A stretch of 64,000 nt of DNA from Zootoca vivipara. Lineage: Eukaryota. Below the pieces are notes generated by a model. The model saw nothing but the letters and a program-made list of their open reading frames with translations. It did no database searches and was not told the origin of the DNA. Of the stretch, positions 843-3,464 are shown piece after piece. The DNA lies in NCBI RefSeq assembly GCF_963506605.1, contig NC_083277.1:74214001-74278000 (forward strand), in the 5' to 3' direction. Numbering within the stretch: the stretch's first letter is position 1; every line of letters begins with the position of its first letter. The position numbers and the translations under genes were made by a program.

Positions 843-3464
843 CCGTGTTTCTCATATTATAAGTCATGTCTTATATTAATTTTTTCTTCAAAAAAACACG
901 ACATGGCTTATTTTTGAGGGATGTCTTATTTTTTAATAAAGTGCACGCGGGCGCTGTTTGCCGGGCTTGTCAAGCCCAGCAAGGAGCGCCCGCCGATCTT
1001 CGGTGACAGGCGGGGATGGGGGGAGAGCGGAGAACGATCTCCGCTTCTCCCCCACCCCCGCCTGTCACACAGGACAGGTCCGAAGATCGGCAGGCGCTGT
1101 TTGCCGGGCTTGTCAAGCCCAGCAAGGAGCGCCCGCCGATCTTTGGTGACAGGTGGGGGTGGGGGGAGAGCGGAGAACGATCTCCGCTTCCCCCCCCACC
1201 CCCGCCTGTCACACAGGACAGGTCCGAAGGTCGGCGGGCGCTGTTTGCCGGGCTTGTCAAGCCCAGCAAGGAGCGCCCGCCGATCTTTGGTGACAGGCGG
1301 GGGTGGGGGGAGAGCGGAGAACGATCTCCGCTTCCCCCCCACCCCCGCCTGTCACACAGGACAGGTCCGAAGATCGGCAGGCGCTGTTTGCCGGGCTTGT
1401 CAAGCCCAGCAAACAGCGCCCGCCGATCTTCGGTGACAGGCGGGGGTGGGCGGAGAGCGGAGAACGATCTCCGCTTCCCCCCCACCCCCGCCTGTCACAC
1501 AGCACAGGTCGGCGGGCGCTGTTTGCCGGGCTTGTCAAGCCCAGCTAGGAGCGCCCGCCGATCTTTGGTGACAGGCGGGGGTGGGGGGAGAGCGGAGAAC
1601 GATCTCCGCTTCCCCCCCACCCCCGCCTGTCACACAGGACAGGTCCGAAGATCGGCGGGCGCTGTTTGCCGGGCTTGTCAAGCCCAGCAAGGAGCGCCCG
1701 CCGATCTTTGGTGACAGGCGGGGGTGGGGGGAGAGCGGAGAACGATCTCCGCTTCCCCCCCCACCCCCGCCTGTCACACAGGACAGGTCCGAAGATCGGC
1801 GGGCGCTGTTTGCCGGGCTTGTCAAGCCCAGCAAGGAGCGCCCGCCGATCTTTGGTGACAGGCGGGGGTGGGGGGAGAGCGGAGCACGATCTCCGCTTCC
1901 CCCCCACCCCCGCCTGTCACACAGGACAGGTCCGAAGATCGGCGGGCGCTGTTTGCCGGGCTTGTCAAGCCCAGCAAGGAGCGCCCGCCGATCTTTGGTG
2001 ACAGGCGGGGGTGGGGGGAGAGCGGAGAACGATCTCCGCTTCTCGCCCACCCCCGCCTGTCACACAGCACAGGGCCGAAGATCGGCGGGCGCTGTTTGCC
2101 GGGCTTGTCAAGCCCAGCTAGGAGCGCCCGCCGATCTTCGGTGACAGGCGGGGGTGGGCGGAGAGCAGAGAACGATCTCCGCTTCCCCCCCCACCCCCAC
2201 CTGTCACACAGGACAGGTCCGAAGATCGGCGGGCGCTGTTTGCCGGGCTTGTCAAGCCCAGCAAACAGTGCCCGCCGATCTTTGGTGACAGGCGGGGGTG
2301 GGGGGAGAGCGGAGAACGATCTCCGCTTCTCCCCCACCCCCGCCTGTCACACAGCACAGGTCGGCGGGTGCTGTTTGCCGGGCTTGTCAAGCCCAGCAAG
2401 GAGCGCCCGCCGATCTTTGGTGACAGGCGGGGGTGGGCGGAGAGCGGAGAACGATCTCCGCTTCTCCCCCACCCCCGCCTGTCACACAGCACAGGTCGGC
2501 GGGCGCTGTTTGCCGGGCTTGTCAAGCCCAGCAAGGAGCGCCCGCCGATCTTTGGTGACAGGCGGGGGTGGGGGGAGAGCGGAGAACGATCTCCGCTTCT
2601 CGCCCACCCCCGCCTGTCACACAGCACAGGGCCGAAGATCGGCGGGCGCTGTTTGCCGGGCTTGTCAAGCCCAGCTAGGAGCGCCCGCCGATCTTCGGTG
2701 ACAGGCGGGGGTGGGCGGAGAGCAGAGAACGATCTCCGCTTCCCCCCCCACCCCCACCTGTCACACAGGACAGGTCCGAAGATCGGCGGGCGCTGTTTGC
2801 CGGGCTTGTCAAGCCCAGCAAACAGTGCCCGCCGATCTTTGGTGACAGGCGGGGGTGGGGGGAGAGCGGAGAACGATCTCCGCTTCCCCCCCACCCCCGC
2901 CTGTCACACAGGACAGGTCCGAAGATCGGCGGGCGCTGTTTGCCGGGCTTGTCAAGCCCAGCAAACAGCGCCCGCCGATCTTTGGTGACAGGCGGGGGTG
3001 GGGGGAGAGCGGAGAACGATCTCCGCTTCCCCCCCCCACCCCCGCCTGTCACACAGGACAGGTCCGAAGATCGGCGGGCGCTGTTTGCCGGGCTTGTCAA
3101 GCCCAGCAAGGAGCGCCCGCCGATCTTTGGTGACAGGCGGGGGTGGGGGGAGAGCGGAGAACGATCTCCGCTTCCCCCCACCCCTGCCTGTCACACAGCA
3201 CAGGTCCGAAGATCGGCGGGCGCTGTTTGCCGGGCTTGTCAAGCCCAGCAAGGAGCGCCCTCCGATCTTCGGCTCTGTCCCCCGATGCGCGACGGCTCGG
3301 GGAAGCAGGCAGGGAGCTCCTGCTGGGTCCCGCGCCTTCGCCTCTCGCTCGGTCGGGGCTACACGACATGGCTTATTTTCGGGGTATGTCTTATTTTTCA
3401 CCAACCCTTAGAAATCCTGTCATGGCTTATTTTTTGGGGATGCCTTAAAATATGAGAAACACGG
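843..3464. mobile_element. Non-autonomous Tc1/mariner-superfamily (Tc2/pogo-like) DNA transposon swollen by an internal tandem array
   Basis: TIRs CCGTGTTTCTCATATTaTAAGtCAT and CCGTGTTTCTCATATTtTAAGgCAT (25 bp, 2 mismatches); TA duplication at 841-842 and 3465-3466; repeated subterminal catggcttatttt..ggg.atgtcttatttt motifs at both ends; no transposase ORF. Confidence 0.85.
947..3272. repeat. GC-rich minisatellite, ~143-bp unit (135-bp variants), ~16-17 copies, each unit made of two palindromes
   Basis: Core gggcttgtcaagccc recurs 17 times at ~143-bp spacing. All overlapping ORFs here are repeat translations. Confidence 0.97.

Follow-up and report, generated by a model that had tools for sequence, protein, structure and literature searches.

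A recent, gene-less transposon copy carrying a chain of GC-rich double hairpins in a CPEB4 intron of Zootoca vivipara

A chain of near-perfect GC-rich palindromes more than 2 kb long, lying in the CPEB4 intron downstream of the neuronal microexon, raises the question of whether it is a control element of its host gene or the cargo of a mobile element and, in the latter case, where the palindromes came from and how they multiplied. The chain was found in a 64,000-nucleotide stretch of the Zootoca vivipara genome (NC_083277.1, 74,214,001 to 74,278,000, forward strand), hereafter the window. The genome contains a family of such elements, a partner with matching ends, arrays copied whole between chromosomes, a master from which the window copy differs by two deletions, and the same module inside elements with two other types of ends. 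The window element is very probably a very recent, gene-less copy of a TA-flanked transposon family of ~200 members with a variable double-hairpin chain. The enzyme that moves it is likely an intact pogo-type transposase encoded by elements with matching ends, and in the intron the copy is probably a passenger, neutral and unfixed. The parts of the element and the neighboring exons, which we take to be those of CPEB4 from short peptide motifs, are the following (window coordinates):

125–298, minus strand: CPEB4 exon starting RRM1 (exon 5 in human numbering), host gene.
841–842, no strand: left TA target-site duplication, flanking the element's left end.
843–946, minus strand: arm corresponding to the autonomous element's 3′ end, with a terminal inverted repeat (TIR) of ~25 bp (843–867) and subterminal short repeats; 92/100 identical to L154.
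947–3272, no strand: hairpin array, 16.4 units of 135–145 bp, equal to a 23-unit master minus 4 and 3 units.
3273–3316, no strand: single-copy module that also follows hairpin A in CAGTGG-ended MITEs and Helitron-ended elements.
3317–3360, minus strand: short GC-rich piece common to the sister non-autonomous family L106 (by-eye reading).
3361–3464, minus strand: arm corresponding to the autonomous element's 5′ end, with the TIR at 3440–3464; 83/100 identical to L154, 94/100 to L169.
3465–3466, no strand: right TA target-site duplication, exactly where contigs of other samples diverge from the window.
7394–7417, minus strand: 24-nt CPEB4 microexon with UGC just upstream of its AG, host gene.

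The earlier note on this DNA had described a MITE with its array enclosed by intact Tc/mariner TIRs and a TA duplication. The enclosure is real: the element (843–3464) measures 2,622 bp, has TA on both sides, lacks a transposase gene, and has two ends that agree at 20 of 21 and at 23 of 25 bases, with short subterminal repeats next to them. The class name needs correction on two counts, since the ends are those of a pogo-superfamily element and 2.6 kb is long for a MITE. The strict MITE definition asks for a short length (~400 bp in the accessible text of PMC9659126) that is also uniform, whereas the array family spans 0.5–5.6 kb; a 235-bp sister with the same ends, found at 31 of 39 sampled left ends, has such a length. 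With TIRs, a TA duplication, dispersed copies in unrelated flanks and no transposase gene, the family belongs to the non-autonomous elements of the IS630-Tc1-mariner group. A coding array was rejected, as the open frames across it are translations of the repeat.

The array is a tandem repeat (947–3269) with a period of 143, 16.4 copies and 94% matches by TRF, and it has a GC content of 68% versus ~39% in the surroundings. Each unit is built by hairpin A (~67 bp, 1-nt centre), hairpin B (~66 bp, 4-nt loop) and an 11-bp spacer. Seventeen hairpin-A centres alternate with 16 hairpin B, 33 in total, and the first A is cut on its left side; full hairpin-A stems extend over ~30–33 bp around the 1-nt centre with 1–6 mismatches. 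TRF and the hairpin count hence agree with the 2.3-kb array of ~143-bp double hairpins and ~33 stems of ~30 bp described previously. Folding had been proposed as a check, and two units are predicted to fold far beyond shuffled sequences, both as RNA (−263 kcal/mol, z −22.4) and as DNA (−155 kcal/mol, z −20.5), with 0 of 200 shuffles as good in either case. In the predicted folds, adjacent units can also pair with one another, and in a folded sense-strand segment of 1,200 nt, 87% of the bases are paired, in helices of up to 30 bp. The G4 DNA that had been suggested is not borne out: neither strand of the element has a canonical motif of four G3 tracts, and the G2-type quadruplex motifs present in the array are located within stems. 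No known structured RNA was matched in Rfam over window positions 700–3600. An assembly artefact was rejected because copies with other flanks share the unit order of the array.

The left end and its TA (TA plus a 21-mer) have 3,369 exact matches in the genome. Among 39 left ends read, a sample that leaves out L101 and the array copies L077 and L079, 31 belong to a 232–238-bp MITE, three to the array family, and five to other GC-rich types (375–1,091 bp) that have repeats of their own, of 41, 52 or 104 bp. The array family's left junction occurs in 199 exact genome copies; the right-junction word has 260 matches, a number that exceeds the left junction and includes other element types, and the hairpin-A core and the B-spacer word are present 3,007 and 2,449 times, respectively, as exact matches. 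A right junction could be paired with 71 of the 83 listed left junctions, enclosing 1–31 units with a median of ~15; the longest array copy, L074, has 37. All 105 complete family copies read carry TA on both sides. The genome search with TIRs and unit that had been recommended therefore recovers family members of variable copy number (1–37 units), and the idea of a transposon-borne tandem array is upheld by 199 left junctions dispersed genome-wide in unrelated flanks. The window element is not special to CPEB4; it is one of ~200 similar copies.

Several loci show how these elements are arranged. At L178, two identical 3,031-bp copies lie on opposite strands 2.3 kb apart (325–3356 and 5685–8716), likely through a local hop; an inverted duplication was rejected, and the pair counts as two insertions because the flanks are unrelated. 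L179 holds another close pair on opposite strands. At L230, the right TIR of an array-family copy is interrupted by a palindromic, GC-rich MITE that has an 8-bp duplication (hAT-like). What seemed at L054 to be a 2.8-kb copy devoid of array was rejected as such; the locus has a 232-bp MITE and, apart from it, a short derivative of 215 bp (2567–2781 in oriented element coordinates) that has lost the array entirely, the leftmost 14 bases of the end being joined directly to the right junction.

The search for a mobiliser gave 96 DDE_1 matches in the genome, and 20 multi-copy ones were fetched. Four of these 20 (L152, L153, L154 and L157) have the array family's ends, TA flanks, a length of 3.5–3.9 kb and open frames of 519–534 aa, whose proteins display DD35D spacing with HTH_Tnp_Tc5 and DDE_1. 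The window's left arm matches the 3′ end of L154 and its right arm the 5′ end, at the identities listed above, the right arm being closer to the deleted copy L169. Intact elements of this kind, which are DD35D pogo (Passer-like) transposons, share the ends of the array family and likely mobilise it, the best intact partner being just 83% identical over the 5′ arm; the sister family L155 (84% protein identity) could also mobilise it. The partner has the DDE_1 catalytic domain, the HTH_Tnp_Tc5 and the DDxD triad of the pogo superfamily, as well as the DD35D, TA duplication and TIR below 30 bp of Passer, and DD35D is also found in Fot/Fot-like elements according to the accessible part of PMC7386202. 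Passer proteins are defined by BrkDBD plus HTH_Tnp_Tc5 or by HTH_Tnp_Tc5 alone (PMC7386202, PMC9976928, in the portions available); the partner gave no match to BrkDBD or CENP-B_N at E 0.05 and has HTH_Tnp_Tc5 alone. In a quick tree of 31 DDE_1 frames, all from this genome, free of published reference rows and with long branches, the partner is sister (SH-aLRT 100) to BrkDBD-bearing frames and apart from CENP-B_N-bearing ones. By its features the partner would fit Passer as those two papers define it in their available portions, a clade membership that this tree does not prove.

The autonomous elements and two sister families have variable repeats of their own, of 88, 158 and 49 bp, in the 5′ region, and internal tandem repeats are a habit of the partner's lineage. 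An origin of the hairpin unit from the partner's own repeats was rejected, as the partner has a different 88-bp repeat (by-eye comparison). Among loci L152–L170, related autonomous elements of Passer-like type with open frames form at least three families. The L155 type, with a 452-aa frame, a length of 3.1–3.7 kb, a variable 158-bp internal repeat and eight near-identical copies among the 20 fetched, may be active at present. The 3′ ends of L152–L154 contain a 79-bp tandem repeat that duplicates the transposase's last codons and stop.

The window copy can be traced to a specific master. Three 23-unit copies on contigs C9, C5 and C1 (L041, L053 and L073) are identical over 3,598 bp, and the window copy matches this master at 2,622 of 2,622 positions, with zero substitutions and two deletions of 562 and 414 bp that remove 4 and 3 units in register. 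The master clade comprises 21 copies: eight keep the master order and carry 0–6 substitutions, 12 are shorter, one is rearranged at equal length, and none is longer. Unit number in this clade thus changes faster than bases, mostly via loss. Further young masters have 19 units (L178 twice, L259 and L260) or 18 units (L257 and L258), and multi-unit block duplications are present in several arrays (L074, L180, L256 and L263). An improvement of hairpin symmetry along the lineage was not seen, the last-copy A having 2–6 mismatches in every group. In-register slippage of the polymerase at hairpins in single-stranded DNA would account for the frequent loss of units and for block duplications, which are rarer, and some of the expanded copies would become the next masters.

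Six arm positions divide the array family into old-arm and young-arm copies. Old-arm copies (n = 31) have a median of six units and arms 1.05% from their consensus (30 measured); young-arm copies (n = 50) have a median of 18 units and differ by 0.33% (49 measured, 21 of them identical to the consensus). The comparison draws on a position-ordered sample whose points are not independent, because copies share masters. The same subfamilies bear on the CpG content, for which the observed/expected ratio is 0.77 in the array versus 0.20 in window 3500–40000. In old arms, CpG sites changed at 3.6% and other sites at 0.74% (~5-fold), and in the units, CpG transitions affect a median of 9.5 elements per site versus one at other C/G sites. 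The earlier note had called the CpGs young or protected: youth is supported, and a protected CpG island was rejected, as CpG sites mutate several-fold faster in both old arms and units. The high CpG content reflects youth, since the faster change is as expected of methylated DNA, and the decay would record germline methylation.

The difference between old and young copies could also arise if masters had always been long and old copies had only lost units once inserted, with no stepwise growth within the array family. The deletion bias of the youngest clade and the existence of old-arm copies with 17 and 31 units would suit this reading, as would the mostly unique unit orders of old copies (six old 10-unit copies differ in unit order). 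We regard it as rather unlikely, given that related elements with other ends hold just 1–3 hairpin-A copies and growth from 1–3 to 18–23 units necessarily occurred somewhere, that the one-unit L171 keeps an extra donor-type tail missing from long arrays, and that the old 2-unit copies L174 and L187 share their unit order. Post-insertion wear could nonetheless contribute to the old–young gap in unit number.

Growth might alternatively have carried the repeat beyond its carrier, with long copies losing their ends and expanding into free arrays, as proposed for miDNA4; the term "satellite seed" had been used for the element in this sense. The size that arrays reach (up to 37 units), the duplication of multi-unit blocks in several of them and the higher unit number of younger copies would favor such an escape, but the youngest clade changes by loss (12 shorter and none longer of 21), and 3,007 cores divided by at least 199 elements give ~15, the measured median, so that the assembly cannot accommodate a large free array. 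By these unit and element counts, arrays lacking element ends were not found in the assembled sequence. A free satellite is therefore improbable and possible only in principle; the part of the earlier term that stands is a variable array borne by a transposon.

The preferred reading, capture of a hairpin unit followed by amplification aboard the transposon, points to a source outside the family. Twenty right-junction loci had no listed left junction: eight are CAGTGG-ended, eight have Helitron-type ends, and four belong to the array family. The non-family carriers hold 1–3 hairpin-A copies among other palindromic modules. Helitrons start with 5′ TC, end with 3′ CTAG preceded by a subterminal hairpin, and insert between A and T; L215, L216, L217 and L225 have both ends, A|TC on one side and CTAG|T plus its terminal hairpin on the other, and four more have the 3′ end only. 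The CAGTGG-ended carriers, which we take to be Tigger-like, have TIRs and TA flanks, and no autonomous partner is tied to them. The entire interior of L171 (529 bp, one unit) matches the CAGTGG-ended L220 at 322 of 332 columns, including an extra hairpin missing from long arrays, and L220 extends beyond the match on both sides. On account of this match, other mobile elements are the probable source of the unit, which would have been amplified after its capture; the donor would have been a CAGTGG-ended MITE, and the mechanism template switching in gap repair. The direction of transfer is suggested by nesting in an unrooted tree, so that a transfer from the family to L220 would also be possible.

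A tree of the module (27 rows, 112–114 columns, unrooted, with one starred branch and two L220-type elements examined) joins L220 to the array family (97/91) and L223 next (93/90), the rest being unresolved. For groups named after the first tree was seen, the AU test rejects a single clade of the seven CAGTGG-ended rows (p-AU 0.00014), a result that supports exchange of the hairpin module between carriers; an L220–L223 pair (0.135), the array family alone (0.95) and the Helitrons alone (0.22) are not rejected. Recombination and capture among lizard non-autonomous transposons are already in print (PMC3014272, accessible text). In L211 and L213, both CAGTGG-ended, hairpin B and the spacer are reversed between two A hairpins relative to L220 and the array (by-eye reading), which amounts to a module inversion. 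A broader, speculative view that we hold as doubtful is that the palindromes are second-order selfish cargo, a hairpin pool that would pass among Helitron, CAGTGG-ended and Passer-like transposons via hairpin-driven template switching and multiply aboard whichever carrier is active. If so, the genome keeps every step (one hairpin, A-B-A, three units, 23–37 units), and thousands of near-perfect 65-bp palindromes would be newly scattered and still segregating.

The presence of the CPEB4 insertion in other animals was assessed from contigs of four runs over window 3272–4000: X5 (sample S4), X11 (S5) and X2 (S2) from the window's species and X14 from a relative, organism B; samples S1, S3 and S6 lie outside this comparison. 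The overhang side of minus-strand contig records was set from record 32, whose overhang can lie only beyond 4000. In all four runs, a contig matches the window from 3465 rightwards and continues leftwards with letters unlike the element's arm (1,177 in X5, 179 in X11, 28 in X2 and 1,354 in X14). X5 has 0 differences from the window over 321 bases and X14 has 17 in 536. An empty site is suggested by the point where the contig match stops, at 3465. Because contigs of three of three same-species samples and one relative pass the site with no arm, the insertion looks polymorphic, contigs showing the presence of one allele and not the absence of another. Summed depth on the arm, which is not a copy number, is 0–700 in X14 versus up to 2–4 × 10^5 in X2 and X11, and the data suggest a burst confined to the lineage of the window's species. 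The element is probably a passenger and not a control switch, since other animals appear to lack it at this spot.

Within CPEB4, the element follows the microexon at a distance of 3,929 nt and precedes the RRM1-exon acceptor (298) by 544 nt, close to the ~4 kb and ~550 nt stated previously. It points in the CPEB4 sense direction, because its left arm corresponds to the autonomous 3′ end and its right arm to the 5′ end, and a simple scan of its sense strand gave no polypyrimidine-AG or GTRAG as cryptic splice sites. The surroundings contain a retroelement-like fragment between element and microexon (~4000–4990, GC 49%) with a 131-codon minus-strand frame at 4514–4909. CAGTGG-ended MITEs are present in CPEB4 introns and upstream (17723–17940, 27118–27538, with an 80-bp repeat inside, and from 51149), and a purine-rich AGGA-type array with a higher-order period of 198 bp at 56450–57050. 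Neither a length-and-phase scan nor short motifs gave a 51-nt exon resembling CPEB4 exon 3 on the minus strand of window 7450–27950, and exon 2 is at ~27960–28020; an exon 3-like exon may have been lost or much changed in this lineage.

The cis-elements that act on human CPEB4 lie beside the microexon or from −5 to +22 of the exon 5 acceptor (PMC12628316, accessible text). That the insertion would alter microexon inclusion in carriers, its hairpins slowing transcription or delaying the exon 5 acceptor and thereby raising inclusion, is highly improbable: it lengthens the downstream intron from ~4.5 to 7.1 kb, its sense strand is predicted to be extensively paired, and in human cells a weaker or blocked exon 5 acceptor gives higher inclusion, but in the same accessible text oligos upstream of −45 have no effect (PMC12628316) and the element ends 544 nt upstream, microexon choice reportedly precedes completion of the downstream intron (PMC13174390, available portion), the element has neither simple cryptic splice signals nor a canonical G4, and it is apparently missing from three of three other same-species samples. 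Any splicing effect would therefore be an allele effect and not conserved control. An effect on the microexon is weakly motivated and unlikely, and the hairpin array is probably ordinary as a CPEB4 regulatory element.

The closest known system is miDNA4 of Xenopus tropicalis (Scalvenzi and Pollet 2014, as summarized in the accessible text of PMC12628747 and PMC9659126), likewise a TA-type non-autonomous DNA transposon whose internal monomer is single or in a variable array and for which monomer capture was proposed. Unlike miDNA4 as summarized there, the lizard monomer consists of two near-perfect GC-rich palindromes with relatives in differently ended elements, and the family has a candidate autonomous partner and no free satellite found in the assembly. 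Xstir/Xmix of Xenopus also has a tandem repeat riding on a MITE, with a proposed stem-loop-driven origin, but that repeat derives from the MITE itself, whereas the lizard unit is unrelated to its carrier's ends (PMC12628747, same portion). The Passer (PS) group of the pogo superfamily shares DD35D, HTH_Tnp_Tc5 with DDE_1, TA, a TIR below 30 bp and a length of 1.6–4 kb (PMC7386202, PMC9976928, available text). Passer is present in squamates, and the Podarcis muralis row of Table S1 has GC-rich internal repeats near the 5′ end, but five squamate rows of that table start with CCGTA and the lizard family with CCGTG (PMC9976928). Unlike BrkDBD-type Passer, the partner lacks a BrkDBD match and stands by itself on a long branch whose sister group is formed by the BrkDBD-bearing elements of this genome. 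TcMar-N3_AC and N5_AC of Anolis carolinensis are similarly young, with TIRs starting CCSTGTTT and a TA duplication, and Anolis non-autonomous transposons are reported to recombine often with one another and to take up foreign DNA; in contrast to the present family, no autonomous partner was found there, the Helitron non-autonomous families are deletion derivatives, and the main text does not contain the word "palindrom" (PMC3014272, accessible text). A literature search gave no description of this element or of palindromic arrays in lizard transposons; Repbase and Dfam were outside the search, so a library entry is possible.

Transposons with internal satellites are known, yet it can seldom be seen where their monomer came from or in which order the steps took place. 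In the present genome, candidate donors occur together with a one-unit intermediate, subfamilies of old and of young age, identical masters with their deletion products, and an intact partner, so that the speed at which units are lost and gained, and what the hairpins contribute to it, can be measured. The apparently polymorphic CPEB4 copy also offers a natural experiment on whether a neuronal microexon responds to a structured insert of 2.3 kb in its intron.
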